This document shows positions 1-54,906 of a stretch of DNA of 64,000 nucleotides, piece by piece (positions within the stretch are counted from its first letter, which is position 1; each line of letters starts with the position of its first letter). Source of the DNA: a virus; UHGV virus genome UHGV-1366123. One strand, given 5' to 3'. A program made the position numbers and the translations under genes. The notes beneath the pieces were generated by a model that searched no databases, was not told the origin of the DNA, and saw only the letters and a program-made list of their open reading frames with translations.

Positions 1-1244
1 ATCTCGTTGATGGTGCTATTGCTTATGAGATCGTGTATGAATATGAGAAGAAATCAGAGATCATATCAAAGATCGAATCCATAAAGGGGAAAATTCGATC
101 AGTGAATGAATCGATATCTCATATGAAGAACGATGTAAAAAGATCAACACTCATAGCAGAGAGAAAGAGAGAGGAAAGAGCTTTAAGAAAGTACGAAGAA
201 ATCTACAATCTTTCATCTTCAATGTCTATGCAGAACGGAGAAGATGGTGAAGATGTTGTACCAGTGAAAATCATCGGTTTTGTTGAATTAGACCCTGCAA
301 AACTGGAGAAAATAGTAGATGGTGAATCTGGGAAGGTTTATTGGTTCTATGCAGAAAACGGCAGTTATCTGTCTGACAATCAAGTCATTAGAATCTCTTA
401 TTATGATGAATCAACATCGGGAAACGTTTCCTATGTTGAAAGACTTATAAGAAACTTCAACTTGAAGAGAAAACTTGAAGATTCTACTGTTGGATGGTTT
501 ATCATGAACTCGCAATACAAGCTCAAGATGGTAGTACCGATCGCCAACAAGACGAGAGATAAAGCAAAGGAAGCACTTCGAAAGGTAACAAACAACTACC
601 AAGAAGATCTGTTTGTCAATGCGATGACTGGGGAAGTTACTATTAACGGAGAACCAAGAATTAACTATTCACGTAACATAGTCTTCCCAAATCGAAACGG
701 TCAGTCTCCTCAAGTTGACGTTCTACAGAGCAGTGGGCCAGATCTTTCATCGATGAAGGTCGTGGACTATTTCAACCGAGCACTTCGAAAAGACTCTCGT
801 ATTCCACTGAACAGATATGATAGAGACCAATCGAACTCGAGAGCGATAATCTTCAAGGCAGATAGTGTCACTTATGAGGACATGTCCTATGCAAACTTCA
901 TAAACAGAATAAGAGCATCATTCTCCGAAGTCCTCAAGAAGCCGATTTACATCCAGTCTCTTCTTGATTGTAAAGACCTCGTGGCATTCCAATCATTGAA
1001 GTCGAGTATCGGTTTTACTTTCAACACGAACTTCCTCTTTGAAGAATCTCGACAGGCAGAGATCATGCGTGCAAGATATGAACTCGTCAAGAACTATGAA
1101 AACATAAAGGGAGAAGATGGAGGAATGCTGTTCTCACAGAAGTTCCTTTACGTGACGAAGTTCAAGGTCTTCACCGAGGAAGAATGGGAAGAGAATGAAA
1201 GAATCAAGGAAGCAGAGAAAAACAAAGAAAAACAAGAAGGTTAA
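1..1244 (+). CDS. hypothetical protein, 5' end probably truncated by the window edge. ORF track gives 33..1244 from GTG, but the frame stays open back to position 3.
   Basis: Long ORF with no in-frame stop upstream of 33. Acidic, coiled-coil-rich N-terminus. No recognisable motif. Confidence 0.55.
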   Translation, partial: LVDGAIAYEIVYEYEKKSEIISKIESIKGKIRSVNESISHMKNDVKRSTLIAERKREERALRKYEEIYNLSSSMSMQNGEDGEDVVPVKIIGFVELDPAKLEKIVDGESGKVYWFYAENGSYLSDNQVIRISYYDESTSGNVSYVERLIRNFNLKRKLEDSTVGWFIMNSQYKLKMVVPIANKTRDKAKEALRKVTNNYQEDLFVNAMTGEVTINGEPRINYSRNIVFPNRNGQSPQVDVLQSSGPDLSSMKVVDYFNRALRKDSRIPLNRYDRDQSNSRAIIFKADSVTYEDMSYANFINRIRASFSEVLKKPIYIQSLLDCKDLVAFQSLKSSIGFTFNTNFLFEESRQAEIMRARYELVKNYENIKGEDGGMLFSQKFLYVTKFKVFTEEEWEENERIKEAEKNKEKQEG

Positions 1245-1250
1245 AGTGAA

Positions 1251-2096
1251 ATGGACTTTATAGTAAAGAAAAACAACGATGATGTTTTCATGCGAAACAT
1301 CATCGTTGCCTTATCAAAGTTTTTATATGATGTGATAAAGATCGTCGAGGTGAAAGATGGTGAAGAAATCCTCAAAACCGTCAAGATCTTCTATGGTTCT
1401 GTCGATCAGCAGTATCTTTCCGATATGTTCCTTGATCCTCATCAATATGAATGGTTACAAGACGACTTGACAGAAGATGACTACAAAAAGATAGTAGAAG
1501 GACAATATCGCAAAATTCCCTATGGTGTTTTCACTTTTGAAAGTGCTGGACTTCAACCAAACCAGATGTCGGGAGGATATGAACGTGCAGAGTTCGTGAT
1601 GGATGTCGAGAACGAGATGGGAATTTCAACAGAGACTTTCTCGGCACGTACAAACTTTGTCCCCGAACAGTTCAACGTCAACATCGAAATTAAAGCATCT
1701 TCTGAAATAGAACGAATGAAGATCTATGACGCTTTCATTGAAAAGCTCTGGAAAGCGAACATGTTCTATTTCAGATACAAAGGTTTCCAAGGTCTTCCGT
1801 GTACGGTGACTTTCCCCGAGAACGCACAGATGGAAAAGAACCTCACTTTCAAGTCCAATACAAATGACAAACTTCCAATGATGAAGCTTGCTTTGAAGCT
1901 CGACACTGTTAGACCAATTATTGATGAGACCACGATAATGATGAAGAAAAACCAAGCAAAGGTAACTTTCATCAACACGAAAGTGGTGATTGGTGGAAAT
2001 GGTACTCGGAAATATCCAATAAACATTGTCCCCTCATCCGTGGAAATAAAGACACACGAACAAACAGAAGATTTCTGGGCGGGTGAAGAAATCTAA
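1251..2096 (+). CDS. hypothetical protein
   Basis: 281-aa ORF tightly packed after the previous gene. No motif recognised. Confidence 0.55.
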   Translation: MDFIVKKNNDDVFMRNIIVALSKFLYDVIKIVEVKDGEEILKTVKIFYGSVDQQYLSDMFLDPHQYEWLQDDLTEDDYKKIVEGQYRKIPYGVFTFESAGLQPNQMSGGYERAEFVMDVENEMGISTETFSARTNFVPEQFNVNIEIKASSEIERMKIYDAFIEKLWKANMFYFRYKGFQGLPCTVTFPENAQMEKNLTFKSNTNDKLPMMKLALKLDTVRPIIDETTIMMKKNQAKVTFINTKVVIGGNGTRKYPINIVPSSVEIKTHEQTEDFWAGEEI

Positions 2097-2102
2097 ATAA
2101 GC
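2093..2102 (+). promoter_or_regulatory. TTTAAATAAC-family motif (CTAAATAAGC), T4 late-promoter-like (TATAAATA), 17 nt upstream of the ATG
   Basis: One of at least 8 copies of (T)TAAATAA(C/G) located 20-40 nt upstream of start codons (2093, 30681, 41856, 46545, 47857, 49861, 59864, 61863). Confidence 0.4.
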
Positions 2103-2118
2103 AAACGTTTCTCTCGAT

Positions 2119-3693
2119 ATGAACAATTGGAACAAATCATACAAACACGGTAAGCTAATACTCGAGCACAAATCTAAACCAGTGAGAATTTTTGAAGATG
2201 ATGAATATTTCCTCTTCGAAAGTGGTGACACCATTGAGCAGATTGCATACAACTATGAAGATCTCGAACACGTTGTAGACATTGTCGACAAGAAATTGGA
2301 ATCCGAAGACGAGGAAAATGTGGACAAAGGAAGAGAACTCTGTGATAGAGTGATTGAGATCTGTGACAATCTTGAAACAGAATACGATTTCCAACATGTC
2401 CTTGAATTGTTCAGATCGTATAACGTGCCTTCTGTGGAAGATCTGACAATAATCGATGAGAACGGAATCCTTACAGAAGATTTCAGAAATGACGTGCTGT
2501 ATGGTGATGGTACGTCACTCAGACTTTTGAGACTTCTCAAAGAGTACTATGGTGAAGAAATTGCCACCGATGTTCTGAACACTCTCGATAGAGTGACTTT
2601 AGTAGAACCGATTTACTCTGTAGATTCTATACCACCAACTGTTGATGCGAAGGTCTATGAAGATCTCTCATTCAGAGATTACATTGGCTATGTTATAATG
2701 ACCGCCACCGATGAAAGTGACACATGGATTTGTATTATGAACTCTGACTCGGGTGATTATGCTATTGTTATTGACTATGTCGCAGGAACAGAGAACACTT
2801 TTAGAGTAACTCAAGATGTTATCGACACGATCTTTGAGTACTATGGTGTTGATGTCACACCACTTTTACAATCACCAGTTTCCGTCATGGAAGCACTTGA
2901 AGATAGAGCAAGTGGTGAAGATGATAAGCCAAAGGGTGAAGACGGTGAAGATGATGTGGAAGACATTGTTGAAGATGTCGATGCGGATCTTCAGAAGGAA
3001 ATCAGCGTTCTAAATGAACAGATTGAAAAAATCGAAAGTCTCCCCGAAGATATCCGTGAGAACGAGAGAATCATGGAAATCTACTACATTCTTCTTGGGA
3101 AACGTGAGTACATCCAGAAGAAGAGCGATGATGACAAGTCCAAGGAAATCGTCGATAACATCATAAACGAAATCGAGGACAACATAGGAGAAATCGATCA
3201 GGTATTCCTTGATGATGATCGCAACGAGATACAGGTCAATGAAGGGAGAGTGTTTGAACACGAAGGAATGACAATCAAACCTGTGATCACTGGTTTCCGA
3301 TCTCACAAGACAAAGACACTCATCGTCGAAAGTGGTGGAGAACGTAAGAGATATGACATCACGAACGGATCAAGAGATGTCCTCAAGAAGATTTTCAAGG
3401 TCAATGAAGCCGAGGATGTCGCCAACATTAGTGATGCTTTCTCCATAATAAACGTTATCAAAGATGACAGAAAGCTTGTCGATTCATTCTACAACTCACT
3501 GGTAAACATCGCTTACAAGATAGACGGTTATCGATCAACATCGGACTACAAGAAGTATATCAAGAACGTGGTCGATGATGGAGATTATGAAAACAAGTCC
3601 GACACATTGCCTTATCTTGTAAATGTCGCATCACAAGATGTGAAGAGATTCAACGCTGTGATAGAAAGAACGAAGACGAAACTCGGAATGTAA
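2119..3693 (+). CDS. hypothetical acidic protein
   Basis: 524-aa ORF with an Asp/Glu-rich central region. TTTAAATAAG-type motif (CTAAATAAGC) at 2093-2102 upstream. Followed by hairpin 3726-3773. Confidence 0.6.
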   Translation: MNNWNKSYKHGKLILEHKSKPVRIFEDDEYFLFESGDTIEQIAYNYEDLEHVVDIVDKKLESEDEENVDKGRELCDRVIEICDNLETEYDFQHVLELFRSYNVPSVEDLTIIDENGILTEDFRNDVLYGDGTSLRLLRLLKEYYGEEIATDVLNTLDRVTLVEPIYSVDSIPPTVDAKVYEDLSFRDYIGYVIMTATDESDTWICIMNSDSGDYAIVIDYVAGTENTFRVTQDVIDTIFEYYGVDVTPLLQSPVSVMEALEDRASGEDDKPKGEDGEDDVEDIVEDVDADLQKEISVLNEQIEKIESLPEDIRENERIMEIYYILLGKREYIQKKSDDDKSKEIVDNIINEIEDNIGEIDQVFLDDDRNEIQVNEGRVFEHEGMTIKPVITGFRSHKTKTLIVESGGERKRYDITNGSRDVLKKIFKVNEAEDVANISDAFSIINVIKDDRKLVDSFYNSLVNIAYKIDGYRSTSDYKKYIKNVVDDGDYENKSDTLPYLVNVASQDVKRFNAVIERTKTKLGM

Positions 3694-3725
3694 AAACCCG
3701 CTATTTTTTAACATCAATATAAAGA

Positions 3726-3773
3726 GAGAGCCTTGTGTGGACTAGTAACAAAAACTACCCATACAAGGCTCTC
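3726..3773. terminator. stem-loop (11-bp arms GAGAGCCTTGT/ACAAGGCTCTC) after the 2119..3693 gene
   Basis: Inverted repeat read directly from the sequence. Confidence 0.4.
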
Positions 3774-3856
3774 GAGTGTATTTCCATTGCGCTCTTTTCT
3801 TTCAAGATTATGAAAACACGATGGAACATCTTCGAGCGCAAGGAAAGTACCTCTCT
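3774..3856. repeat. promoter-stem-loop cassette (PeSL-like): arms GTATTTCCATTGCGCTC / GAGCGCAAGGAAAGTAC flank a TTGCGC-N16-TATGAA promoter-like core
   Basis: Imperfect 17-bp inverted arms. Consensus arm GAGAGGTAYTTTCCTTGCGCTC recurs at 3.9, 9.7, 10.2, 20.4, 28.1, 47.1 and 54.9 kb. Confidence 0.5.
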
Positions 3857-3876
3857 TTGATTTAAGCTTTCGAACA

Positions 3877-3957
3877 CACTTCCCTTGCATTCGAAACTAT
3901 TCAAGAATATGAAAATAGCGGAAAATGGGTCAGAGTTCAAGGAAAGTACCTCTCTCG
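3877..3957. repeat. second PeSL-like cassette: TTGCAT-N18-TATGAAAATAGCGGAAA core followed by a CAAGGAAAGTACCTCTCTC arm
   Basis: Shares the 25-bp core TTCAAGAATATGAAAATAGCGGAAA with the 9.76 and 10.19 kb copies. Confidence 0.5.
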
Positions 3958-4051
3958 AATTAGAAGGCGTATGTTTATAAACGGAAAGGTGGCTACCAGA
4001 GAGATCATCTCCGATAGCCACCACCTTCTCTTCTTTTTACGATTTTCTTTT

Positions 4052-4468
4052 TTATAGATACTTGATGAATGAGAAGTAGTCTCGGTTTTCTAAGTATCTC
4101 GGTTTTCCCTCATTCAGATAAGCTTCCTTTTCAAAGGATATGCTCACGTAAGCTTCGTCATGGTTCTTCTTTATAGCAAGTCTTATGAGATATTCCAAGA
4201 AATACCACACATAAAACGCACAGAATGAGAGAAGCATCGTGAGGATCGTGTACTTGACATCGATTCTACCTATGAAAGGAACATTAAGAATTGTAAACAC
4301 TGCAAACATCAGTTCTTTCCATTGTTCTACGTGTATTAGTTCGTGGTTCACGATGACACTATCGGCATCATTTTTACTTGATCTGATAAACACATGACCA
4401 AACAACATCATAGCACTATAACCCTTGGGCAGGAGAAATCGTACTAACTTACTGTTATAATGTATCAT
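4052..4468 (-). CDS. small membrane protein with an HExxH motif (HELIHVEQ), DUF3267-like putative metallopeptidase
   Basis: 138-aa ORF on the minority strand. Two or three hydrophobic helices plus HELIH. Confidence 0.45.
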   Translation of the reverse strand: MIHYNSKLVRFLLPKGYSAMMLFGHVFIRSSKNDADSVIVNHELIHVEQWKELMFAVFTILNVPFIGRIDVKYTILTMLLSFCAFYVWYFLEYLIRLAIKKNHDEAYVSISFEKEAYLNEGKPRYLENRDYFSFIKYL

Positions 4469-4542
4469 AAAAGCGTATTTTAGTAGTTTATATACTTTTT
4501 CGGGAAGGTAAATAACACAAATTAAAAAAAGACTTCGACATT

Positions 4543-7500
4543 ATGTCAAACAGTATAGACAAGTTTTTAGAGAATGTAGCGAGACATGACATCACGTCTT
4601 TGGAGATAATCAACGCCCTCCAAAAGATGATGATCGATGAATCTGATACTGTTAGAATAGAATACATCCTTGAGAACGGCAAAGAATCGTTCGACGTACC
4701 TTCTCTGTCCCACATCATCCGAAGACTTGAAAGAATCGACAAGAACATAAGGAACATAGTGGCAGATGGTGAGATGCAGGCGTACGTTGTTACACAAGAT
4801 GGCGTTCGAAGACAACTTATAAACATCAAGAGATTTACACCAAATGAGATAACGATCACGGACGACATCATTTCGAAGTCATTATACACACATGAAAACC
4901 TCAAAGGTGAAAAATCAACGTTTATTGATATTGACATTTCGAAGCAGGTCGAAGAGTATAAGTACGATTTCACCCATGTACAGATAAAGAAGCTTTTCGT
5001 CGATGGTTATGATTTCTCTGCAGGTACGAAATACGAGAATATACTCAAACATCTTCATTCTACGGCGAAGAAATATAAAGAACAAGAATCGATCGTTTGT
5101 GTCAAACCAAGATCACGAAACATCACCCGAGATTTCAAGATATCGGACATTTCCGAGGACGGTTATCTTTTAGACAATGGATCTGGACAGAATCTCTCGT
5201 ATACAGAATCGATCGATGGTGATGTGACGATTACAAGATCAGTTTCAGTTGGATCAAAGTTTACTGTCGGTAAGAACACTCTTTGGTCAGTTTCGGAAAT
5301 TGACAAGTCCACTGGTTATGTCCGATTTAACACGGTTTATGGTCTTGAACAAGTATCCATTGGTGATACGATCAAGATCGATATCGAAGACGAGTTTGGA
5401 ACAATTGTCCCAGTAGAGCTTCATTCATCAGAGCCATTCATTCTCTTCATCAAACCGATAAATCAGCGGTGGATAGCTTCTGATGAATGGGGATCTTGTA
5501 ATGTCTATGTGAAACCCGACGTTCAAGTCGAAGAGAAAATCAACAATCTCCGAGGTTCTTCGGCGAAGAAGGATGTTTATGTGAAGCCGAACGCCCCCTC
5601 CCTTGAAGCCAAAAACCTGCAAGTGAAGCTGATCAATTCACATAGAATAAACCAGTTCGAGACGAAGGTAAGAGAGAAATATGCCGAGAAGGAAAACGTA
5701 AAGAGCCAAATCGAAATCATCGACAAATCGATAGTGAAACTCAAAGACGAGATGGGTTCGACTGTCGATAAAAACCTACGTGAGAAACTTCAGAAGTCGA
5801 TAGATGAGAATTATAAGCAGAGAAAGAATCTCGTAAGCACTTTCTATTCTCTTGTCAATGATATCCTCACGTATACTCGAGATTCTGAAGAATTCAAACC
5901 AAAGTACAGAATCAGAGGGTTCTTTGCTATACCAGATCCTACAGTTTATAACGGAATATCCTACGACATTATCAAGTTTGAATGTCAATATCGATATCTC
6001 CGAACTGATAACACTGAATCAAACGTAGAGACAATCGACTATATCTTACCCAGTGGTGAGAAACTCAAAGCATACTACTCGAATTGGAATACGCTCCCAA
6101 TGAACCAGAGAGAGAAGATCTACAACATTGCAACTGGGGCGTATGAATGGAAATCTGAAAATGAACTCGATGCCGATAGCATTAATCCAAATCAAGTAGA
6201 CATTCCAATATCCAAAAATGAGTATGTAGAAATCAGAGTACGTTCTATCTCTGAAGCTGGCTATCCGACAGTTATCAACATGTCGGAATGGTCATCACCT
6301 GTCATTGTTGAATTCCCACAACATCTCGTCGACACATCATCGAAGATTTTCGAGGGGATTGGTGATGACAACATGCTCACGATGATAGAGAAGGAACTCA
6401 CATCAATTGGTGTTTATGATCACCTTTCAGATTCCCACACATCGGGCGAGAAAATGTTCCACCATTCTTCACGTAACATATCGACGGACTACTTCACTGA
6501 TGGTGAAAACAAGCAGAAATCGGTGATGCAGGTTCTCGACGAGATGAAGAGAACGATTGATTCGATAGAATCAAGATATGGGATTAAGAACTCTCCTCTA
6601 CAAATATCCATTCTTGATAGCAATGAGGAAAAGATCATGAACATTGAGAACAATGACCATGTGAAGATCTTTGCTGGTTATTACAAGAACGAAACCGAAT
6701 CGAACTCGAAGGGATCGATTATTCAGAAGACGTATTATCTAAGCATAAGAAATCCAAAGTCGATAGATGCAGAACTCTTGTCTTATGTCCCAGGTTTCAA
6801 CACACCAGTCACTGAGGACATGAGTGGATACGTTCACGATGAGAAGACTTACGGCTATCGTCGCTATGACTTCCCTTGCATCGGCTTTAAAACCGATGGA
6901 GAAGGTGAACACCGACTTCCGTTTGGATCTCCACAGATGAAGGGACAATTTGTCTATCAGAGATCACGTGACCTTGCACTTCAAGAGAGTATAGTCGAGA
7001 AGTGGAAGAAATCGACGACTGGGATGAATGCCTCAGAAAAGAAACTGAACGAAGAAAGAAAAGAACTGAACTTTGGGGATTATGCAACGACTGGGAAACC
7101 CGAGACACAGTTCATCGCAAAGATTGTCGATGGAAAACTCGTGGATGGAAACGGTTATCTCACAGATTTCTGCTTCCACAAAGATCACCCGCTTTTCAAG
7201 AACATAAGTGGTGTGGATAGCGAACACAAATCCACGATTAAAGACATCATCACCAAAAGTGTTCAGAGTGCATCTTTCAAGTCGAACTCGGTGAAATCGA
7301 TAATCGGTGAATCATCCAAGATTGGTTTCCACCACGATGACAGATACCTCGTAGGCAAAGACACCTGTGGTGCTTATGTTTATCTTTCACCCCAAAATCC
7401 AAAATCGATAAGCACCAACACGAACATCTATAACAAAGGGATAATCATCAACAATTCAGAAATCAGAATACCGATCATCTTCGAATGTAGAATGACGGAC

Positions 7501-7662
7501 TATTATGGTGATGGTTCTCAAGGTGAAGGGCGTGTAAATGGCGAAGATGGTGTGAAGAACGTGGTCTATGAGAAAGTTATCGGCTTTGACCTCATACAAA
7601 AGTTCATCGATGATATCTTCTCATTCGACATAACGATAAAGATGAAATATCAAGAAGACTAA
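4543..7662 (+). CDS. large (1039 aa) protein, probably a virion structural component; the length is comparable to T4 baseplate wedge gp7, but there is no motif support
   Basis: Single uninterrupted 3.1 kb ORF with coiled-coil segments. Bidirectional terminator 7686-7723 downstream. Confidence 0.7.
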   Translation: MSNSIDKFLENVARHDITSLEIINALQKMMIDESDTVRIEYILENGKESFDVPSLSHIIRRLERIDKNIRNIVADGEMQAYVVTQDGVRRQLINIKRFTPNEITITDDIISKSLYTHENLKGEKSTFIDIDISKQVEEYKYDFTHVQIKKLFVDGYDFSAGTKYENILKHLHSTAKKYKEQESIVCVKPRSRNITRDFKISDISEDGYLLDNGSGQNLSYTESIDGDVTITRSVSVGSKFTVGKNTLWSVSEIDKSTGYVRFNTVYGLEQVSIGDTIKIDIEDEFGTIVPVELHSSEPFILFIKPINQRWIASDEWGSCNVYVKPDVQVEEKINNLRGSSAKKDVYVKPNAPSLEAKNLQVKLINSHRINQFETKVREKYAEKENVKSQIEIIDKSIVKLKDEMGSTVDKNLREKLQKSIDENYKQRKNLVSTFYSLVNDILTYTRDSEEFKPKYRIRGFFAIPDPTVYNGISYDIIKFECQYRYLRTDNTESNVETIDYILPSGEKLKAYYSNWNTLPMNQREKIYNIATGAYEWKSENELDADSINPNQVDIPISKNEYVEIRVRSISEAGYPTVINMSEWSSPVIVEFPQHLVDTSSKIFEGIGDDNMLTMIEKELTSIGVYDHLSDSHTSGEKMFHHSSRNISTDYFTDGENKQKSVMQVLDEMKRTIDSIESRYGIKNSPLQISILDSNEEKIMNIENNDHVKIFAGYYKNETESNSKGSIIQKTYYLSIRNPKSIDAELLSYVPGFNTPVTEDMSGYVHDEKTYGYRRYDFPCIGFKTDGEGEHRLPFGSPQMKGQFVYQRSRDLALQESIVEKWKKSTTGMNASEKKLNEERKELNFGDYATTGKPETQFIAKIVDGKLVDGNGYLTDFCFHKDHPLFKNISGVDSEHKSTIKDIITKSVQSASFKSNSVKSIIGESSKIGFHHDDRYLVGKDTCGAYVYLSPQNPKSISTNTNIYNKGIIINNSEIRIPIIFECRMTDYYGDGSQGEGRVNGEDGVKNVVYEKVIGFDLIQKFIDDIFSFDITIKMKYQED

Positions 7663-7685
7663 TCTTAAGCACCTCCGTAAAAATT

Positions 7686-7723
7686 GGAGAGGGCTGTGGT
7701 CTCGAAATTGACCACAGCCCTCT
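7686..7723. terminator. perfect 15-bp stem (GAGAGGGCTGTGGTC / GACCACAGCCCTCTC) with an 8-nt loop, lying between convergent genes
   Basis: Read directly. It sits between the + gene ending at 7662 and the - gene ending at 7754. Confidence 0.6.
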
Positions 7724-7753
7724 CGCTGTCTATGAATAGTATGAATAGAATCC

Positions 7754-8458
7754 TTATTTTCTCTTTCTGAAAGATATCTTCTTGTCGAACCCATGACCGA
7801 CGATCTTCTGTTCATCGGTCATCTTCACTTCAACACCGTCTTTGATTTTCGAGGAGAGGAAGTTTTGGATCTTGATGAACATCTCCTCTGGAGGAACAAT
7901 CCCACCGAAGTTGATGCACTTCAAGAGTGGATTTTTACAAGTGAAGTAACTTTCAAATCCAAATCTGGCCACCTTCGGGACTATCTCGGACGCTGATATT
8001 TCGAACAGACATCTGAACATGTCGTCGTAGTCTATACGCTCATTTCCAAAACCGTATTTTCTACCGTGAGTGATCATATAAGACATGAACATAGAGAAAA
8101 CGGTATGGGCGTTGTCAATGTTCAGTAAGAACGAGACACTGTCAGAGAGTTTCTCCTTTTCATCGATCTCCTTTGTGCAGATGAGAGAAAGAGAACGTAT
8201 GTCCTTGTGATAGAAACTCAATCTTTGGAAAGGGTGCTCCCCTCTTAAAGAATCTCTCTCGGGATCAACATCAACTCTGAGAAGATACCATGTTGTGGCA
8301 ACTTCTACAAGAAAATAGGCAAGATTATCATGACAAGAAAAACGAACATCTTCGTGCTGTAAATTGAAAGCGTGCCTATCAAACACGATCTTCCTATCTA
8401 CACCATAAACGCCTTGGATGTAGTCGTAGTAGTCTTTGTTCGTGTCAAGGATTAACAT
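7754..8458 (-). CDS. hypothetical protein
   Basis: 234-aa ORF. Its start overlaps the stop of the guanylate kinase gene (ATG 8458 / 8452), so the two are translationally coupled. Confidence 0.5.
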   Translation of the reverse strand: MLILDTNKDYYDYIQGVYGVDRKIVFDRHAFNLQHEDVRFSCHDNLAYFLVEVATTWYLLRVDVDPERDSLRGEHPFQRLSFYHKDIRSLSLICTKEIDEKEKLSDSVSFLLNIDNAHTVFSMFMSYMITHGRKYGFGNERIDYDDMFRCLFEISASEIVPKVARFGFESYFTCKNPLLKCINFGGIVPPEEMFIKIQNFLSSKIKDGVEVKMTDEQKIVGHGFDKKISFRKRK

Positions 8459-8985
8459 ACGTCGAAACTGTGAGCGTAGAATTTTTCGATTGTTGTTGCC
8501 GTATCGATCTTCACATGATCATAACCGAGATCTTTCATCTTCTGATCAAAGTTTTCAAAGAGCTTGTCGTCATTCTCATCTCTGGAAGTGGTATCTTGAG
8601 ATGTATCACGAATCTGTCTTCTTAGGATTGTGACTGTCTTTTCACAGACAAGTTCCGCAATTGTTATCTTTGAACGAAGATTTTGGGGGATATTCTCGAG
8701 ACCAGTTGGTGAAGTGATGAAGAAGTCACAATCTCTGAATTCTTGAAAAGTAGTTCCGTAATATTCTCCTTGGAATTCCATGAACTGGATGAACACACTA
8801 TTATTCACTAATCTCACGAATTCCTCCTTGGAAACAAAGTGATAATCTTTACCGTCTATTTCACCATCTCTTGGTTTTCTTGTAGTATGACCTATTGCTG
8901 GTTTGTATCCAAGAGTTGTAAAAACATCTAAGAAGTGATTCTTACCAACTGCAGATTTACCAACGAAAGCTATCTTCTTCATCAC
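8452..8985 (-). CDS. gmk: guanylate kinase
   Basis: P-loop GKSAVGK. HTTRKPRDGEIDGKDYHFVSKEEF matches the Gmk signature HTTRxPRxGEvdGxdYhFV. FQGEYYGTT matches the E. coli Gmk FGNYYGTS region. Confidence 0.8.
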   Translation of the reverse strand: MMKKIAFVGKSAVGKNHFLDVFTTLGYKPAIGHTTRKPRDGEIDGKDYHFVSKEEFVRLVNNSVFIQFMEFQGEYYGTTFQEFRDCDFFITSPTGLENIPQNLRSKITIAELVCEKTVTILRRQIRDTSQDTTSRDENDDKLFENFDQKMKDLGYDHVKIDTATTIEKFYAHSFDVC

Positions 8986-8995
8986 CAGTTGTTTG

Positions 8996-9661
8996 TTAGA
9001 AGTTTAAGAACCAGTGAATTGATCTTGCAGAATCGATCAGACCATCCAGATTTCTTACTGATTCTTCTGATTTTTCAATGACTTTCTCGTTTGGCATCTT
9101 ATATTCCAAAGATGGGTAAGGATTTTTATAGAAGACAGAAGGATTGAAGAATGTGTAAAGAAGAATCTCTTCACGGATCATCTTGTAAACGTTCATTATT
9201 TCCTCTGGAGATTTTGAAGAGAGATCGTGAACAACAGTTATGTCTCGCATATCAAGAATCTTCATCTTGTTCCGTGTCTTTATAGAAAACTGCTTATAGA
9301 ACACTGGATCGGATTCCACAATGTAATAGTCTTCACAAAAGAGACCGTCACGAATAAACGGAATCGTTTCCTCGTGATTCTCAGTTTTAATACCTTCGTC
9401 GTTGATTATCATATCTTGATATGAAACCACCAAATCACCCCTTCGAGAGTATAAGTCAAGATCGATATTTTCAATCCTTGCTTGTCTACCTTCGATGATT
9501 ATGAAGATATCGTGGTTCAAGACCATATTTCTGAATTGTTCTAATGATTTCATTGTCTTCTTTGTATTCTTATGGAAATCCGACGAATCTACTTCATACG
9601 TCTTATAATGAGCAGAAAGTTGTTGTTTTTGTTCAGAAGATCGGTGGAAATGGGAAGACAA
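8996..9661 (-). CDS. hypothetical protein
   Basis: 221-aa ORF, the first gene of the leftward three-gene minus-strand block. Confidence 0.5.
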   Translation of the reverse strand: MSSHFHRSSEQKQQLSAHYKTYEVDSSDFHKNTKKTMKSLEQFRNMVLNHDIFIIIEGRQARIENIDLDLYSRRGDLVVSYQDMIINDEGIKTENHEETIPFIRDGLFCEDYYIVESDPVFYKQFSIKTRNKMKILDMRDITVVHDLSSKSPEEIMNVYKMIREEILLYTFFNPSVFYKNPYPSLEYKMPNEKVIEKSEESVRNLDGLIDSARSIHWFLNF

Positions 9662-9723
9662 TGACTAACAGTGAAGACAATCGACCATAATGAAAAACAA
9701 TGACTAAAAATGGTCGAATTAAA

Positions 9724-9807
9724 GGAAGGTACTTTCCTTGTCCTCGAAGTGACTCAAGAATATGAAAATAGCGGAAACTATACTCAAGCTCAAGGAAAGT
9801 ACCTTCC
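9724..9807. repeat. PeSL-like cassette with perfect 17-bp arms GGAAGGTACTTTCCTTG / CAAGGAAAGTACCTTCC around a TTGTCC-N17-TATGAAAATAGCGGAAA core
   Basis: Read directly. The sigma70-like -35 (9738-9743) and -10 (9761-9766) boxes are embedded in the core. Confidence 0.55.
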
Positions 9808-10163
9808 TGTAATCAGAAGAGGTATTCTGTAAGACTATGGGCTATCGTCGGGAGACAATGGACTATTTCGAAGGATTATGAGAGGATAATCAAAGACTAT
9901 GGAAAGACAATGGCTGATTATTGAAAGACAATGGCTGATTATTGAAAGACTATCGATCATAATCAAAGACAATGAAGGATTGTCGTCTTTGTGTCTTCCT
10001 TGTCTTCAAACTTATCAAATGGGGTGAAAGTAGCTCCAAGTATCTTCAAGTTCAAGGAAAGTACCTTCTTGTAATCAGAAGAGTACTTTTGTCCAATGAT
10101 GGGTTGATAATGAAAGACAATGATGATTATCAAAGGACTATTGAAAGACTATCGACTGTTTTC

Positions 10164-10245
10164 TTGGTACTTTCCTTGTCCTCGAAGCTATTCAAGAATA
10201 TGAAAATAGCGGAAAGTGTATCAGAATGCAAGGAAAGTACCTTCC
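10164..10245. repeat. PeSL-like cassette (TTGGTACTTTCCTTG ... CAAGGAAAGTACCTTCC) around the same TATGAAAATAGCGGAAA core
   Basis: Near-identical to the 9724-9807 copy. Confidence 0.55.
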
Positions 10246-10956
10246 TGTAATCAGAAGAGTATTTTTGAACAATTATGGGTTATTGTCGGAAGACAGTAGA
10301 TTATTTCGAATGATTATCAAAGACTATGAAAAGACGATGACTATGAAAAGACAGTCAATCATAATCGAAAGACAATGGACGATTATTGATTAATCATTGA
10401 AGACTTTGAAGGATTGTGGAATGACTATGAAGACAATGGACGATTGTTGAAAAATTCTCAAAAGACTATGAAGGATCATTGAAAGACTATGACGATTGTT
10501 GAAAATTCTCAAAGACTATGAAAAATTCTCAAAGACTTGGATTCTTGGACTAATAGTCAGACTAATTCTTGGAGATTATTCGGCTCAGTTGTCGACAAAC
10601 TGCGTGCTTATTCGTGTGTATTCCCGTGTGTATTCCCGAGTGTATACTCGTATACGCATGCGGTATTTCAAATTATCTGGAAAAGTAAATGCGAAGCATT
10701 TACAACTGGTTTGGAGAACAAACTATGCACGCTAGTGCATAGGTTTCTTCCAAACCATACATTGAGCGCAGAAATATCTTTATTTCTCAGATTAAAAATC
10801 TCCAGTTTAAACGATTGGTACCGCCAGCGTGTTAGGTGACACGCACGTAAAACTGTAGGAATTCCTGCGCTCACGTATGAAACTTTAAAAAACGTACACG
10901 TAAAACTTTAAAAAGATCCAACAATTAACATTCTTTAACATAACCTATCACCTCTC

Positions 10957-12273
10957 TTGATTATAGGAATTGTGAATAGACATCATCCGACATCAACTTC
11001 ATCTACTCATCTACTCATCTACTCATCAACTGATCAATTAATCAGACAACTCTACAACGAATTCCAACAAATGATCCTTGAGATAGAACTTAACCACTCA
11101 TCCTTGAAGAAGGGACAGAATGTTACGGAAGAGGACATTCTTATGGAAATATCTCGACTTGAGAGAGAAGCAAGTTATCAGTCCACAATTAACAAAGTCT
11201 CGAAAGTTGCTCTCAATTCAATCTATGGTGTTCTTGGTTATCACTCATTTATCCTTTACGACAGAGAAATTGCAAGATCGGTTTCGGAGCAATCTTCTCA
11301 CGTGATCCGTTACACCATTCTCTTCTTCAATAGGTATTTCCAACAGAGATTCCCAAATCATAGGGAACTACACGCAAAGATGGGGATTACAAAGTGTGAT
11401 CCGATCGATTTCAATGCGGTGAACTATGCTGACACTGATTCCGTGTTTATCCGTTACAAGGACATCATGGACAAGACCGATTACAAGGGGACTCTCGAGG
11501 AATTCGTCTTTGATATCGGTTCGTATGATCTCAATGATTGTGTCAAAGATATGCTCGAAGGCTATATTCGAAAGTTCAACGGATTCCAACAGAAGATCGA
11601 TGGACAACGTTCAATGAAGCTTGCTTTTGAAATGATCTGTCATAATGTCTTGTGGACATCGAAGAAGAAGTACATCAAGAATATCTCTTGGGAAGAAGGT
11701 GTTTATTTCAAGCCACTTGAAAACGTAGAAGTTAAAGGTCTCGACATTAACAAGAGTTCAACGCCAAAGTTTGTTCGAGAACTTCTCCGTGAGACAGTCC
11801 ACTACATCTTGCAACATAGAGAACTCAACCTTCGAGATTTCATCGACCACGTCAAGATGCAAAAATCAAAGTTCGAAAGTGCAAACGTGGAAGACGTTGC
11901 AATCTCTCAGAGAGTTAATGGTTATGAGAAATATGTGATAACTGCAAAAGATGGTGTCTTCGAATACGTCAAAGGTGTAACAATTCAGATCAGAGCTTCG
12001 AGTGTTTATAACGCAGAACTTGCAAAATCGAAGTACAAGCACAAATATCAACAGATCAGATCGGGGATGAAGATTCAGTACTACTATTCAACAGATCCTC
12101 GTAGTGATGTTTTCGCATTTGTCAACGGTGATCCTTGCTATGAGTTCCTTTATCCAATCGATTATTCTAAGCAGTTCGAAATGCTTTATCTTTCACCACT
12201 TAACAAGATAATCACATCGATTGGTGTACAAGCACTGCCTGTTTCATTGATCGCTTTCGATCCACTTTGGTAA
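10957..12273 (+). CDS. family B DNA polymerase, C-terminal fragment (fingers/palm: motif B KxxxNSxYG and motif C YxDTDS)
   Basis: KVALNSIYGVLG (motif B) and NYADTDSVFI (motif C). The region aligns to T4 gp43 from about residue 540 onward. The true start may be the internal Met (MILEIELN...) because the 5' end contains a (CATCTACT)x3 tandem repeat. Confidence 0.85.
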   Translation: MIIGIVNRHHPTSTSSTHLLIYSSTDQLIRQLYNEFQQMILEIELNHSSLKKGQNVTEEDILMEISRLEREASYQSTINKVSKVALNSIYGVLGYHSFILYDREIARSVSEQSSHVIRYTILFFNRYFQQRFPNHRELHAKMGITKCDPIDFNAVNYADTDSVFIRYKDIMDKTDYKGTLEEFVFDIGSYDLNDCVKDMLEGYIRKFNGFQQKIDGQRSMKLAFEMICHNVLWTSKKKYIKNISWEEGVYFKPLENVEVKGLDINKSSTPKFVRELLRETVHYILQHRELNLRDFIDHVKMQKSKFESANVEDVAISQRVNGYEKYVITAKDGVFEYVKGVTIQIRASSVYNAELAKSKYKHKYQQIRSGMKIQYYYSTDPRSDVFAFVNGDPCYEFLYPIDYSKQFEMLYLSPLNKIITSIGVQALPVSLIAFDPLW

Positions 12274-12280
12274 AAGACAA

Positions 12281-13093
12281 ATGAGAACTTTAAACTTTGT
12301 CTATGGTTGTGATGTCTTTGGAAAGAAGGAAGGGACTTGCGGAGATCCATTTGACGATTCAATCATAGTTCCCACGGAAAAGTCATCTTGTCCATATTGC
12401 TACGTCCGTTACAAGATGTTCCCAGCCCGTGGTTATGCCGATCAGTTTTTCCTACAACCAAAGATAAACGTTCGACACCTCCGAGATTTCATAAGTCCAT
12501 CAGAGGTCTCTGAAATCTACATCGGTTCGATAATGGGTGACTTTTTAAGTCCATCGATCGAAGACAAGGACATAGCTCAAGTCTTTGACACTTTCGGAGA
12601 TTTCCCACAACACGTCTTCTTTCTCTTGTCGAAGAATGCTGGAAGGTACTACAAATTCCTCCGAGACTACTATCAGAAACCGCTCCCAGATAACGTCATA
12701 ATTGGAACATCTGTGGAAAATGATGGCTTTCGTCATAGAGTGGATCTTCTGCGAGCATCTTTGAAGATTTCTCCAAACACAAGACTTTGGTTGGAAATTG
12801 AACCTCTTCTTGGATTTCATACAAAGACTGATTTCTCGGGGATTGAGTATGTTTCATGTTCTGCGCTTGGTCAAGATCAAATCTACTACCAGAATGGGAA
12901 ACGATTTCCGTGGGTCTTCCGTGAAGAATGGATGCAATCGATAATCGATAACGATACACTTGATAAAGAGAATCTGTCGATTTATCACAATATCAAAAAT
13001 CTCTGCACGTCCCCGATAATAAGAGATTGGGAGAATCCGAACCTCTATGAAAGGTTCTTCCACAAATCTCAAAAAGAAGAAACACTATGGTAA
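12281..13093 (+). CDS. DUF5131 (phage Gp37/Gp68 family) protein
   Basis: CPYCY motif, IYIGSIMGDF, HVFFLLSK and NVIIGTSVENDGFRHRVDLL match the conserved blocks of the Gp37Gp68 family. Confidence 0.55.
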   Translation: MRTLNFVYGCDVFGKKEGTCGDPFDDSIIVPTEKSSCPYCYVRYKMFPARGYADQFFLQPKINVRHLRDFISPSEVSEIYIGSIMGDFLSPSIEDKDIAQVFDTFGDFPQHVFFLLSKNAGRYYKFLRDYYQKPLPDNVIIGTSVENDGFRHRVDLLRASLKISPNTRLWLEIEPLLGFHTKTDFSGIEYVSCSALGQDQIYYQNGKRFPWVFREEWMQSIIDNDTLDKENLSIYHNIKNLCTSPIIRDWENPNLYERFFHKSQKEETLW

Positions 13094-13701
13094 AAATCGT
13101 CTACCTTTCAAGTTTGAAGTCATACGTGGCGAAGATCGGTGATAGATTCTTCACAGTCCGTATCGACATGGACAGATTCAACGACTACAACCCCTGTATC
13201 GACAAGAAGAAGTTCCTTTCATGTGCAGGATCTATCGAATATATCGGAGGTGTGGCAATTGTCGTTCCAATGATCAAACTTCTCGTAGAGAGAAGAGACG
13301 GAACAAAGACCTCTTCGAGATTTCTTTACAGATTGAGCTTTTCTGAAGAATCGTTTGACGAAATGATTGATAACTATCTTTTCACACTTCTGGAAATCTA
13401 CGTTACCGAAACAATTCCTTATTCCGATCTTTGGAAGTTCGAAGATGAGATAGTAGTCACTTCGGGAATTGGTGAAATGTTGTCAGTTATCGGCTTCAAT
13501 GAAAATGGAAAGCGGATCTCTGAAGGCTTCGTAAACTTTGAAAACCTCAGAACACCACAGATTTTCAAGTACTCTTCAGACATCATTGTTATCGACAGAC
13601 ATGGCAAAGACTTGAAAATCATCGTGAATGGTCTTCTTGTCGAAAGTACAAAGATGACAGTTTCCAGCATTTACAACAACGAATACCTCAACTTTAAGTA
13701 A
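13087..13701 (+). CDS. hypothetical protein
   Basis: 204-aa ORF. Its start overlaps the previous stop. Confidence 0.5.
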   Translation: MVKIVYLSSLKSYVAKIGDRFFTVRIDMDRFNDYNPCIDKKKFLSCAGSIEYIGGVAIVVPMIKLLVERRDGTKTSSRFLYRLSFSEESFDEMIDNYLFTLLEIYVTETIPYSDLWKFEDEIVVTSGIGEMLSVIGFNENGKRISEGFVNFENLRTPQIFKYSSDIIVIDRHGKDLKIIVNGLLVESTKMTVSSIYNNEYLNFK

Positions 13702-13712
13702 ACAGATAGACC

Positions 13713-14336
13713 ATGCCCAAACTAGTACTCGTAAAACTCAGACACGATAACAAGACCATAAGAACCTATGCTGTTTTGAAAGATGGTCAGTACTACGTTG
13801 TTGTCTTTGATGGTAAAAAGTTCAACGAGAAAAGATACTCTCTTGACGGCAAGTTCTGTTTGTTATTGGAAGATTATCTTGATGGGAATTTCGTCTTCTC
13901 AAGAACACTTGGAAGAGTGGTCTATGATGATGACAGTCGTGACATCTTCAGATCACAGAAGATCCTCGACAGAGTAGACATTTCGGAGGAAGTGTTTGAA
14001 AAAATGATAATCGATGAGATCATTTCTCTTGAAATGATTAAGAAGACTGATATCATCGACGATTCTTATTGGAAATTCCAAAAATCAGTCATTCTCAAAG
14101 CTGTTACAGGTAAACATTACCTCTTAGTGGAATACAAGGATGAAACAGATGGTTATTCATCATCCAAGCTTCACTACCACTATGGCAAGAACGTGGAAAT
14201 GGTCTCCGAAGGTAGAAATATTTCGATCGAACTTGACTATGCTTGTATCAAAAACATGCTTGTCGACGGAAATATAAAAGAGGAGGTTGAGGTGTCGACT
14301 TCAACCATTCTTTCAACCAGTGATTTTTTAATTTAG
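13713..14336 (+). CDS. hypothetical protein
   Basis: 207-aa ORF. Confidence 0.5.
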   Translation: MPKLVLVKLRHDNKTIRTYAVLKDGQYYVVVFDGKKFNEKRYSLDGKFCLLLEDYLDGNFVFSRTLGRVVYDDDSRDIFRSQKILDRVDISEEVFEKMIIDEIISLEMIKKTDIIDDSYWKFQKSVILKAVTGKHYLLVEYKDETDGYSSSKLHYHYGKNVEMVSEGRNISIELDYACIKNMLVDGNIKEEVEVSTSTILSTSDFLI

Positions 14337-14349
14337 AATCTGTGAAAAT

Positions 14350-14682
14350 ATGACTACACTGCTGGATGACTACTTCTCTGTGAAAGACTACACTCGGAGA
14401 ATGTTCAAGATCCATAACAAGATTCCAATGTCATACTTCTCAAAGAAGAAGACTGATGAGGAATTCGAACTGATAATCGAAATCTATAACAGACTAAAGG
14501 AACTACCAACTTACATCTACAACGACATGGAAGATGGTGAAAATGTCGACATTGCGATTGATGACAGATTCGGAGATCTTTTAGAAATTGTAGAAGAAGA
14601 TCCAATGAACCTTAAAAACATCGATCATTACAGGGAAATGTTGACACTTCTTGACACCTTGGAAGATCAGATCATAGCTTAA
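14350..14682 (+). CDS. hypothetical acidic protein
   Basis: 110-aa ORF. Hairpin 14709-14739 (CGGTCATCTT/AAGATGACCG) downstream. Confidence 0.45.
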   Translation: MTTLLDDYFSVKDYTRRMFKIHNKIPMSYFSKKKTDEEFELIIEIYNRLKELPTYIYNDMEDGENVDIAIDDRFGDLLEIVEEDPMNLKNIDHYREMLTLLDTLEDQIIA

Positions 14683-14809
14683 AGAAGAAGGGAAAACAAA
14701 AGAAGAAACGGTCATCTTGTCGTAAAGATAAGATGACCGAAACATTACTAAGTAATCAATCGCAAACAATCACAAACAACAAATAAAGATCAATCTCAAT
14801 TAAACGATT

Positions 14810-16213: not shown

Positions 16214-16339
16214 TTGCTATTCTTTATTTTAGTTTGTGCCCGAGACCTCACCTTCGATATAAGAAAGGTGAGGTCTTAACATATAAGAACAATAACAATC
16301 ATCAACAATAACAATCAAAGACAATAACAATCAAAGACA

Positions 16340-17125: not shown

Positions 17126-17140
17126 AAACTCAAGCAAGCT

Positions 17141-18136: not shown

Positions 18137-18155
18137 GAACAATCACAAACAAAAG

Positions 18156-19214: not shown

Positions 19215-19227
19215 AGAATAATCGATT

Positions 19228-20351: not shown

Positions 20352-20433
20352 TTGGTATTTCCCTTGATTTCTGAATCCATTGGAGGTGTGAAAGCCTTCA
20401 GAAATGGTTTCGAGGTCAAGGGAAATACGTCTC
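20352..20433. repeat. PeSL-like inverted repeat (GGTATTTCCCTTGA ... TCAAGGGAAATACG) in the 240-bp non-coding gap
   Basis: 14-bp arms flank about 50 bp. A variant of the dispersed arm consensus. Confidence 0.45.
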
Positions 20434-28120: not shown

Positions 28121-28198
28121 GCTCTCCGAGCTTAAGGAAGGTATTTTCCTTGCGCTCTGGAATATCGACGAATATTTTCACCCCAATCAAATCAAGAA

Positions 28199-42539: not shown

Positions 42540-42581
42540 CTTCCGCAACAAATAAAGAAACAATCTTAATAAGAAACAAAT

Positions 42582-42983: not shown

Positions 42984-43010
42984 TATAAAAAATCGTAAAA
43001 GAAAGAAACA

Positions 43011-43821: not shown

Positions 43822-43848
43822 TTCGTATTCATAGAAAAGATAAAGATT

Positions 43849-43879
43849 GACGTGGCGAAATGTTTGATTTCGCCACGTC
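43849..43879. terminator. 13-bp stem GACGTGGCGAAAT / ATTTCGCCACGTC followed immediately by TGTATATAAAAG
   Basis: Read directly. First of three homologous hairpin-plus-TATA modules inside the array. Confidence 0.6.
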
Positions 43880-43891: not shown

Positions 43892-43907
43892 AAAATTCTG
43901 ATATAAA

Positions 43908-47022: not shown

Positions 47023-47053
47023 AGGGCAAGGAAAACTATTTCCTTGCCCTCTC
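47023..47053. terminator. perfect 14-bp stem AGAGGGCAAGGAAA / TTTCCTTGCCCTCT with a 4-nt loop, closing the array
   Basis: Read directly. The stem sequence is related to the PeSL arm motif. Confidence 0.55.
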
Positions 47054-47126
47054 CTTGTGTTTGAGCCTATTTCTCCTTGCCGAACTACCTTCACAGTCGT
47101 CAGAGATCAAGGAAAGTACCTCTCCG

Positions 47127-54816: not shown

Positions 54817-54849
54817 GCCATCAACCAATAACCACGACAAGATATTCTT

Positions 54850-54906
54850 GAAGGCACAGAGAGGTATTTCCGTTGCGCTCTGTGCCTTCAAGAATATAAA
54901 AAATCG
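54850..54906. repeat. PeSL-like cassette: stem GAAGGCACAGAG / CTCTGTGCCTTC with loop AGGTATTTCCGTTGCG, then TATAAAAAATCG; TTGCGC-N16-TATAAA
   Basis: The arm motif sits in the loop here. Lies upstream of the HD hydrolase gene. Confidence 0.5.

Follow-up and report, generated by a model that had tools for sequence, protein, structure and literature searches.

What kind of element occupies region 3774-3957 of the virus genome UHGV-1366123, in which inverted arms frame a T/A-rich centre twice in succession? The stretch analysed here, referred to as the window, is 64,000 nt of this genome. A first-pass annotation had described a dispersed family of promoter-bearing stem-loop cassettes and had listed 13 arm positions (3777, 3833, 3940, 9724, 9791, 10049, 10164, 10229, 20355, 20417, 28133, 47101 and 54862). 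Each of these positions, from 3777 to 54862, corresponds to a real arm, and the repeat family is real, intergenic and non-random. Region 3774-3957 itself consists of two tandem units, each composed of a left arm, a T/A-rich centre and the right arm CAAGGAAAGTACC.

A repeated 76-bp module in a T4-type phage

The arms of the window make up nine intergenic cassettes at six loci, seven of them paired and two of them half cassettes, the latter at 47.1 and 54.9 kb (Table 1). The cassette is a 76-bp intergenic module, present in about nine copies per 64 kb, in which two inverted 19-nt boxes stand exactly 63 bp apart with a conserved 10-bp centre between them. A search with the 22-mer consensus of the first-pass annotation, allowing up to 3 mismatches, yielded 5 matches where 0 were expected, while AGGTAYTTTCCTTG with up to 2 mismatches yielded 17 against 0.81 expected (shuffle maximum 3), the motif being roughly 20-fold enriched relative to shuffled sequence. 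A weight matrix made from 86 arms matched the window 20 times at 12 bits or more, compared with 0-2 times in shuffles; at 20 bits or more there were 14 matches, all of which lay within the nine cassette sites. Intergenic DNA accounts for 11.8% of the window and contains every cassette site except for the degenerate right arm of cassette 4, which is situated inside the start of a gene. The proposed inverted pairing of arms 40-60 bp apart was borne out at seven sites, where 49-50 nt separate the 13-nt arm cores and the start-to-start spacing is 63 nt (62 in cassette 1a). Weak partner arms at 3872, 9987 and 28195 had been missing from the original list.

The assignment of this phage to the T4 type was upheld by Pfam, which identified a gp20 portal (Portal_T4 at 33-1244, E 9e-39), the gp23 capsid protein (Gp23 at 61904-63526) and a gp44 clamp loader. 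PHROGs revealed a baseplate wedge protein, a gp2-like end protector and a Dda-like helicase, and a gp32-like SSB, a primase and a terminase were also found with these two resources. The family B polymerase is split between two distant genes, and a search for tRNAs returned nothing real. Megablast of positions 1-20000 of the window against 50,697 phage records gave no match, and relatives were detected at the protein level only. The closest capsid proteins are those of phages of Flavobacterium (39.5% identity), Tenacibaculum, Chryseobacterium and Prevotella, and the 5-mer core of the Shine-Dalgarno sequence was found at 0 of 65 gene starts, the upstream regions of which are 50% A. Because the closest capsid relatives infect Bacteroidota and the genes are without Shine-Dalgarno sites, the host is probably a member of this phylum.

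Pattern scans of IMG/VR and of metagenome assemblies recovered related contigs of about 145-150 kb, the group being one of T4-like gut phages. Six to eight of these relatives are 85-94% identical to the window and collinear with it, and they contain more than 60 cassettes among them. The exact paired-arm pattern had no match in 185,579 GTDB species genomes, so that the cassette is neither a host repeat nor visible in a prophage, and the box sequence was found in the literature only within unrelated primers. One cassette was found in an unrelated 50-kb contig, L075, in which the arms and the 63-nt spacing are kept and the centre is a G+C-rich hairpin that has no TA box. The 10-12 kb of L075 that was compared had no tblastx or protein similarity to this phage group.

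Table 1. Cassettes of the 64,000-nt window and their parts
Cassette	Position	Strand	Left arm	Centre	Right arm	Remarks
1a	3777..3851	+	3777-3789 (TGTATTTCCATTG, variant)	3809-3818 (TATGAAAACA)	3839-3851 (CAAGGAAAGTACC)	Spacing 62 nt; conserved in 6 relatives
1b	3875..3950	+	3875-3887 (weak)	3908-3917 (TATGAAAATA)	3938-3950	
2a	9728..9803	+	9728-9740	9761-9770 (TATGAAAATA)	9791-9803	
2b	9990..10065	+	9990-10002 (degenerate)	10023-10032 (GGTGAAAGTA)	10053-10065	
2c	10166..10241	+	10166-10178	10199-10208 (TATGAAAATA)	10229-10241	
3	20354..20429	+	GGTATTTCCCTTG	20387-20396 (TGTGAAAGCC; relatives TATGAAAGCC)	CAAGGGAAATACG	Same variant in both arms
4	28140..28215	+	28140-28152 (strong)	28173-28182 (TATTTTCACC)	28203-28215 (degenerate)	ATG of adenylosuccinate-lyase-like (PurB-like) gene at 28199
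5 (half)	47045..47120	.	Degenerate; overlaps hairpin 47021-47054		47108-47120 (conserved)	
6 (half)	54842..54904	+	Box AGGTATTTCCGTTGCGCTC at 54862-54880	TATAAAAAAT at 54895-54904		ATG at 54916

Several cassettes had also been placed at the boundaries of strand switches or accessory genes. The loci at 3.8, 9.7-10.2 and 47.1 kb are the only ones at which the coding strand changes, whereas cassettes 3, 4 and 6 (20.4, 28.1 and 54.9 kb) have co-directional genes on both sides. Cassette 1a lies between the convergent genes 2119-3693 (+) and 4052-4468 (-), the second of which is a real gene. On the 3' side of cassette 1b, a conserved extension, AAT(T/C)AGAAG, is followed by a hairpin at 3988-4022, and the 1a/1b pair has two separate hairpins, on either side of it. 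The three cassettes of the second locus, beginning with 2a, are found at the head of a 1.3-kb non-coding region (9662-10956) between divergent transcription units in 6 of the 6 relatives examined, and AATCAGAAGAG and TATTTTTG lie downstream of cassette 2c. Half cassette 5 is again situated between convergent genes, its right arm coming directly after the stop codon of the minus-strand gene 47127-47834.

Cassettes 4 and 6 are the only ones that adjoin a start codon, and start codons are found 13-20 nt downstream of the single-box copies. Between the box of cassette 4 and the ATG lie N20, TATTTTCA and 18 nt, and the degenerate right arm, which falls within the coding sequence, encodes residues 2-6 of the PurB-like protein, whose SPLDxRY N-terminus is conserved. 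Half cassette 6 contains a 20-bp hairpin, with stems at 54842-54861 and 54878-54897, of which the box makes up the loop and the first part of the 3' strand; from the box to the ATG the order is N19, TATAAAAAAT and 11 nt. Small ORFs downstream of cassettes (e.g., 9972-10250, 10537-10839 and 3755-4024) are interrupted by stop codons in relatives.

Constraint on arms and centre, and the question of a selected stem-loop

Read towards the centre, the arms are inverted copies of AGGTACTTTCCTTGnnCTC, extended by (T/G)(G/A)A. Information in the arm is high from positions -1 to +17, and arm variants retain GGTA, six pyrimidines and TTG. Among 63 verified pairs from the relatives, the spacing is 63 nt in 58 and 62 nt in five; a spacing of 64 nt, which was permitted by the search, occurred in none of the 63. 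Every centre contains TGAAA, at a distance of 22 nt from the left CCTTG and of 23 nt from the right CAAGG, and apart from this pentamer the cores belong to unrelated classes. The conserved AT-rich core of the first-pass annotation is therefore borne out as far as the central TGAAA is concerned, but the 25-nt sequence TTCAAGAATATGAAAATAGCGGAAA proposed for it is present in only three of the nine cassettes.

As a measure of constraint, 3-7 orthologous sequences were compared for each locus and the proportion of columns that vary was determined. It amounted to 0.11 for the arms and 0.12 for the 10-bp centre, rising to 0.34 for the inner 8 nt and 0.50 for the spacers. In neighbouring genes it was 0.02-0.18 for first and second codon positions and 0.39-0.52 for third positions (alignments of 5-8 sequences). 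Arms and centre (TRTGAAA) vary as little as first and second codon positions, and the spacers, fixed in length, vary like third positions. Three constrained blocks that are separated by freely evolving spacers of fixed length constitute the signature of -35 and -10 recognition, doubled around a shared centre. The cassette is a real and strongly constrained regulatory repeat with an unusual paired-box architecture, and it is restricted to one phage group.

An alternative function at the level of RNA appears quite improbable, although a number of observations are in its favour. The cassette would form a hairpin of 13-30 bp within longer messages and act as a terminator, as a processing or stability site, or as a dock for an RNA-binding protein. 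The cassettes are predicted to fold with energies of -18 to -44 kcal/mol and z-scores as low as -7.8. Stop codons lie 15-45 nt ahead of them, a position that they share with the unique terminator hairpins of the phage, and several loci are between convergent genes. Both arms of cassette 3 carry the same two substitutions, representing one compensated event, and the hairpin stem of cassette 6 has undergone compensatory changes in relatives. Moreover, the phage encodes a DUF2828/DUF7788 protein, labelled in PHROGs as an RNA-binding protein, for which a PDB sequence search gave no match.

Covariation between the arms was assessed in 71 distinct cassettes, at variable positions outside and inside the 13-nt core, by comparison with shuffled partners. 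Watson-Crick pairs at these positions did not exceed chance and often fell below it (observed/shuffled, 17/27.3, 8/17.9, 15/25.1 and 26/33.5). The only covarying arm position was +7, and its signal came from one event, that in cassette 3. Selection in the arms is not for base pairing; their complementarity follows from the presence of two inverted copies of one recognition sequence. The extended hairpin as the selected unit was ruled out by the same shuffle test.

Further features speak against a function in RNA. The other terminator hairpins of the phage are unique and have no sequence in common, whereas the cassette arms are invariant, and a loop would not be expected to have a conserved centre between neutral spacers of fixed length. 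Folding energy did not consistently favour either strand, and a comparison of strand folding and G-U tolerance with local gene direction had a mixed outcome. The cassettes are without a U-tract, and cassettes 1a and 1b are already bracketed by hairpins of their own. Rfam gave no match at the gathering score and, up to an E value of 1, only spurious hairpins of the microRNA type; a Ro/Y-RNA-like reading of the cassettes found no support. Most likely, to judge from these sequence comparisons, the cassette is a module for the control of transcription at the DNA level and not a selected stem-loop.

Promoter-like geometry of the paired boxes

The first-pass annotation had placed the TTG of the arm 16-18 bp from the TAT of the core, and nearly all copies do have a spacer of 17 bp (16 bp in cassette 6). 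On both strands, three bases and then a 17-bp spacer lie between the arm TTG and a T(A/G)(T/C) triplet. Conservation of arms and centre, together with drift of the spacers at constant length, is the pattern expected of a promoter. The simplest model would be a symmetric promoter module with two outer -35-type boxes and an overlapping -10-like centre, since it could account for the inverted boxes, their exact spacing, the constrained centre, the neutral spacers, independence of orientation and the functional-looking copies with a single box.

According to this model, the 19-nt box AGGTACTTTCCTTGnnCTC would serve as an upstream recognition element of the -35 region, its TTG 17 bp from the centre, and the 10-bp centre (TRTGAAAnnn, or TAYTTTCA on the opposite strand) as a melting element of the -10/-7 type. 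As the two inverted boxes share one centre, RNA polymerase could bind either way, and start sites would lie about 15 bp apart on opposite strands of a symmetric, potentially bidirectional promoter. In bacterial bidirectional promoters, divergent start sites are by definition 7-25 bp apart (PMC10268837), a range that would include the distance implied here. The copies with one good box, cassettes 4 and 6, may act as one-way promoters just upstream of a start codon. The conservation of the box greatly exceeds that of ordinary -35 elements, for which reason the box probably has a dedicated reader, for instance an activator, a repressor or a specificity subunit modified or encoded by the phage; with such a reader the same sites could double as operators. 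The RNA hairpin formed in read-through transcripts would be a by-product, which may contribute to termination or processing.

That the cassette represents a symmetric, possibly bidirectional promoter or operator module is put forward tentatively, as having somewhat less than an even chance of being correct; transcription, its direction and the factor responsible are what we infer from the arrangement of the parts. Relative to flanking genes, the centre faces either way: loci at which the TGAAA strand follows gene direction are about as many as those at which it does not, as expected of a symmetric element. The same comparison ruled out a simple one-way promoter, as well as a reading of TAT-GAAA-ATA as a GNRA-type loop. 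Other observations weigh against a promoter. The cassettes between convergent gene ends (1a/1b, 5 and the C-type locus in relatives) would have no gene to serve, the centre of the L075 copy lacks the TA box, and cassette 3 in its entirety folds into a long hairpin with G-U pairs on the sense strand.

The resemblance of the cassettes to sigma70 promoters is weak. While the 17-bp spacing from TTG to TAT is present, a standard scan for -35 and -10 elements called none of the cassettes, and promoter-like sites matching the sigma70 consensus numbered 16, compared with 21.2 in shuffles. The TATGAA hexamer on the TGAAA strand is without the -7 T, its -11 A is polymorphic (A/G) among orthologues, and TGAAA/TTTCA is the only invariant part of the centre. 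The opposite strand, TAYTTT(CA), is a better -10/-7 match than TATGAA. Promoters of Bacteroidota are of the TTTG / TAnnTTTG type rather than of the sigma70 consensus (PMC7366714), and the TTTG / TAnnTTTG consensus is nearly absent from the 64-kb window. When the cassettes were compared with Bacteroidota sigmaA promoters, one strand, cTTG-N20-TAYTTTCA, matched 6 of 8 positions of the -7 motif, the spacing in the consensus being about 19 bp, and the other strand matched TA only; neither strand is a full match.

A role for the boxes as operators outside the promoter proper is unlikely. They would then form a pair recognized jointly by a sequence-specific phage DNA-binding protein, which clamps or loops the DNA to repress or insulate transcription, while a protein such as the HU-like protein of the phage could bend the A/T-rich centre. 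In line with such a role, conservation of the boxes is much stronger than that of the centre, GTAC forms the middle of a weak pseudo-palindrome in each box, and 63 bp corresponds exactly to six helical turns. Arm pairing is not selected, the cassette is independent of orientation, and the L075 copy retains arms and spacing while losing the centre. An HU/IHF-family protein is encoded at 25318-25581 (Pfam Bac_DNA_binding, E 2e-25). On the other hand, a candidate binding protein for the boxes was not identified, the 19-nt box is asymmetric, which is unusual for a dimer site, and a 63-bp loop would be very tight. Operators would also leave unexplained why the centre is as constrained as the arms and why single boxes occur at a fixed distance from a TA box before genes.

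It is far less probable, indeed scarcely credible, that each box is a -24/-12 promoter of the sigma54 type (GG-N10-GC), despite the resemblance of TGGTAC-TTTCC-TTGC to TGGCAC-N5-TTGC. The box fits GG..AC-N5-TTG exactly, with C as the next base in about half of the arms, and the near-consensus sequence TGGCACGATTTTTGT occurs downstream of ATGACA repeats at 58309. However, the sigma54 consensus with up to 2 mismatches has 24 matches in the window against 25.8 expected, and, whereas GG and TTG are invariant, only about 50% of arms have the critical C at -12. Two such boxes would fire into each other, the conserved downstream CTC is not a feature of sigma54 promoters, and no enhancer-binding ATPase was found among the window proteins scanned.

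The symmetric promoter model has a bolder version, which is rather unlikely: the cassettes may embody an undescribed promoter architecture, a symmetric two-box module that is read either way with a dedicated phage factor and is portable, in a T4-like phage of Bacteroidota with, perhaps, 2-aminoadenine (Z) DNA. Portable behaviour is suggested by the single copy in an otherwise unrelated phage contig.

Mobility and comparison with known cassettes

Correia, ERIC and MITE-like repeats are intergenic, multicopy elements of about 100 bp with terminal inverted repeats. Like them, the cassettes may carry promoter elements and fold in RNA. It is nevertheless very improbable that the cassette is a miniature mobile or recombinogenic element that shuffles neighbouring genes in the manner of MITEs, Correia elements or PeSLs, and to which regulation is secondary. 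Its terminal inverted repeats extend to about 27-30 nt in a total of about 100 bp, and it is present in many copies, one of them in the unrelated 50-kb contig. The cores at one orthologous site are mosaic, being of A type, B type or an A/B hybrid, and outside the window three different gene-sized inserts adjoin that same mosaic-core cassette in different genomes. Against mobility, all six loci of the window are occupied and collinear in 6-8 relatives, with no empty site seen, and neither a consistent target-site duplication or flanking direct repeat, nor a gene interrupted by a copy, nor a transposase was identified. In addition, the arms are invariant at old orthologous sites while the spacers drift, indicating selection at the level of the phage. 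This purifying selection, as well as the lack of target-site duplications, empty sites and insertions into genes, distinguishes the cassettes from Correia and ERIC repeats. A MITE was ruled out by the absence of target-site duplications and empty sites.

The idea that the cassettes mark synteny breaks did not hold in the window, where the 6-8 relatives are collinear at all six loci. Invertible promoters of Bacteroidales, or invertons, likewise have inverted repeats that flank a promoter-like segment, in a Bacteroidota setting (PMC8748976), but in the cassettes the repeats are only 50 bp apart and of unrelated sequence, and orientation at each locus is constant. An inverton was rejected, as no flipped orthologue was found and orientation was identical in all orthologues of each locus.

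PeSL and PmSL cassettes of T4-type phages were reportedly described by Arbiol et al. in 2010. In a PeSL, a stem-loop (terminator) directly precedes an early promoter of the sigma70-like type, after which come a Shine-Dalgarno site and a start codon; PeSLs are concentrated in hyperplastic regions and beside sites where close relatives differ by indels or replacements (Comeau et al., 2014; PMC4122927). The present cassettes share with PeSLs and PmSLs (Comeau et al., 2014; PMC4122927) the character of short, dispersed, conserved intergenic modules in a T4-type genome, with inverted repeats, an arrangement like -35/N17/-10 and degraded "half" copies. At one locus outside the window, gene replacement adjoins a cassette, a further point of likeness. 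The stem-loop of a PeSL, however, precedes its promoter, whereas the repeats here surround a promoter-like centre at an exact spacing of 63 bp. The cassette hexamers are poor sigma70 matches, Shine-Dalgarno sites are missing, and it is the sequence of the arms and not their pairing that is conserved. Furthermore, within the window the variable small-ORF region contains no cassette, and none is located at an indel. The cassettes do not belong to the PeSL family, and the resemblance is functional and partial. Most likely they are an unusual variant of dispersed phage regulatory cassettes, a function that we infer.

Middle promoters of T4 combine a MotA box at -30 with a -10 element. There too, a phage-specific box replaces the canonical -35 element and the -10 element is looser, and dependence on a phage factor is predicted for the cassettes as well. 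The box sequence differs from that of the cassettes, and the MotA box measures 9 nt compared with 19 nt here, where the boxes are also in inverted pairs. Symmetric bidirectional bacterial promoters are said to have been described by Warman et al. in 2021. Such promoters also comprise an outward-facing pair with overlapping -10 and outer -35 elements and can yield antisense or non-coding divergent RNA, as is predicted for the cassettes (PMC10268837). Known cases have TATAAT symmetry, a poorly conserved -35 element and a usual start-site spacing of 18 bp, whereas in the cassettes the outer boxes are the best conserved part, the centre is TRTGAAA/TAYTTTCA and the start sites are those implied by the geometry.

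Almost nothing is known about the timing of transcription in large lytic Bacteroidota phages. As promoters read by means of a dedicated box, the cassettes would define a regulon, point to a specificity factor and supply Bacteroidota genetics with compact parts that are possibly bidirectional. As operators or RNA sites, they would nevertheless be the mark of a global regulator in a phage group that occurs in human-associated metagenomes. The constraint on three blocks provides a precise mutational design for either reading. Two repeated intergenic signals stand out in the window, the cassettes and hairpin-plus-TATAAGA boxes, and the variable region of paralogues and small ORFs at 42-47 kb has hairpin-plus-TATATAAA signals in place of cassettes.

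Predicted DNA modification and candidate binding proteins

The presence in the window of a five-gene nucleotide set, encoding a PurZ-like homologue of adenylosuccinate synthetase, an adenylosuccinate lyase, a MazG-like pyrophosphatase, an HD phosphohydrolase and a guanylate kinase, suggests that the DNA of this T4-like Bacteroidota phage contains 2-aminoadenine (Z). If so, the way in which its promoters are read would be affected as well. The phage also encodes an HU/IHF-family DNA-binding protein reminiscent of TF1 from phage SPO1, a protein whose binding sites are early promoters in modified phage DNA. A protein carrying DUF2828 and DUF7788 belongs to a family labelled 'RNA-binding protein' in PHROGs, and a sequence search of the PDB returned no match to it.

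Positions of genes and intergenic features (window coordinates, except for the L075 cassette)
Feature	Position	Remarks
PurZ-like adenylosuccinate-synthetase homologue	25775-27205	PHROG '2-aminooxy adenylosuccinate synthetase', E 4e-23
Adenylosuccinate lyase	28199-29470	
MazG-like pyrophosphatase	31365-31835	
HD phosphohydrolase	54916-55674	
Guanylate kinase	8452-8985	
HU/IHF-family DNA-binding protein	25318-25581	87 aa; Pfam Bac_DNA_binding, E 2e-25
DUF2828 + DUF7788 protein	14810-16213	467 aa
Iteron-like repeats	9874-10503	
Long conserved hairpin	about 10700-10765	
A-rich repeats	about 10870-10915	
Polymerase N-terminal gene	35385-36881	exonuclease and start of polymerase domain
Polymerase C-terminal gene	10957-12273	polymerase part
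GroES-like chaperonin gene	36885-37142	
Cpn60/GroEL-like chaperonin gene	37152-38741	
Second GroES-like match	49497-49868	
Hairpin + TATAAGA sites	16282, 23429, 27281, 31339, 32680, 40032, 52738, 63612	
TATAAAA sites	25655, 33852, 43884, 50840	examples
Cassette in L075 (same contig as L252)	7714-7807	in the gap separating a large gene from the following start codon

An origin-like region, a split polymerase and a possible two-part terminase

The cassettes are intergenic modules in which two inverted 19-nt boxes (arms) surround a 10-bp centre. Three of them lie within 1.3 kb of non-coding DNA (9662-10956), each with iteron-like repeats, about 21 nt long (AAAGACAATGG..GATTATTG), on its 3' side; 3' of the repeats is a long conserved hairpin and, 3' of this, A-rich repeats (CACGTAAAACTTTAAAAA). 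Judged by its sequence, the region looks like a replication origin. Relatives possess another region that has the same centre, and cassettes and repeats flank it in mirror orientation (L185, a region from one relative).

The family B DNA polymerase is encoded by two genes with approximately 24 kb between them. Because the neighbouring genes at 32745-33827 and 33880-34698 both match terminase families, a split or two-part large terminase is suggested. Chaperonin genes of the GroES and Cpn60/GroEL types are also present, along with a second GroES-like match.

Intergenic signals, paralogues and cassette-like copies elsewhere

Many intergenic regions contain a unique G+C-rich hairpin with TATAAGA or TATAAAA directly 3' and a start codon 3-60 nt further on. 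This appears to be the chief signal besides the cassettes and, as predicted from sequence, looks like a terminator joined to a promoter of the T4 late type (TATAAATA-like). At 58208-58330, ATGACA(A/G)A repeats and TGTCAT/ATGACA palindromes form an array. Downstream of it is TGGCACGATTTTTGT, which comes close to the sigma54 -24/-12 consensus, and in relatives (L042) a paralogous copy is found 3' of a cassette. About 10 paralogous genes of approximately 130 aa each stand in tandem at 42129-46990; this family has its own hairpin-plus-TGTATATAAA signals and differs in copy number in one relative (L226).

Within the Cpn60-like gene, an inverted pair of weak box-like sequences (38107-38186), 56 nt apart and scoring 14.6 and 14.8 bits against the weight matrix built from 86 arms, is probably a chance occurrence or a decayed copy. 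A cassette was also found in L075, a 50-kb contig with 46% G+C and Shine-Dalgarno sites at its genes, for which protein similarity to the phage group was not found in the 10-12 kb fetched. Its arms and 63-nt spacing are as in the phage group, and its centre is a G+C-rich hairpin.
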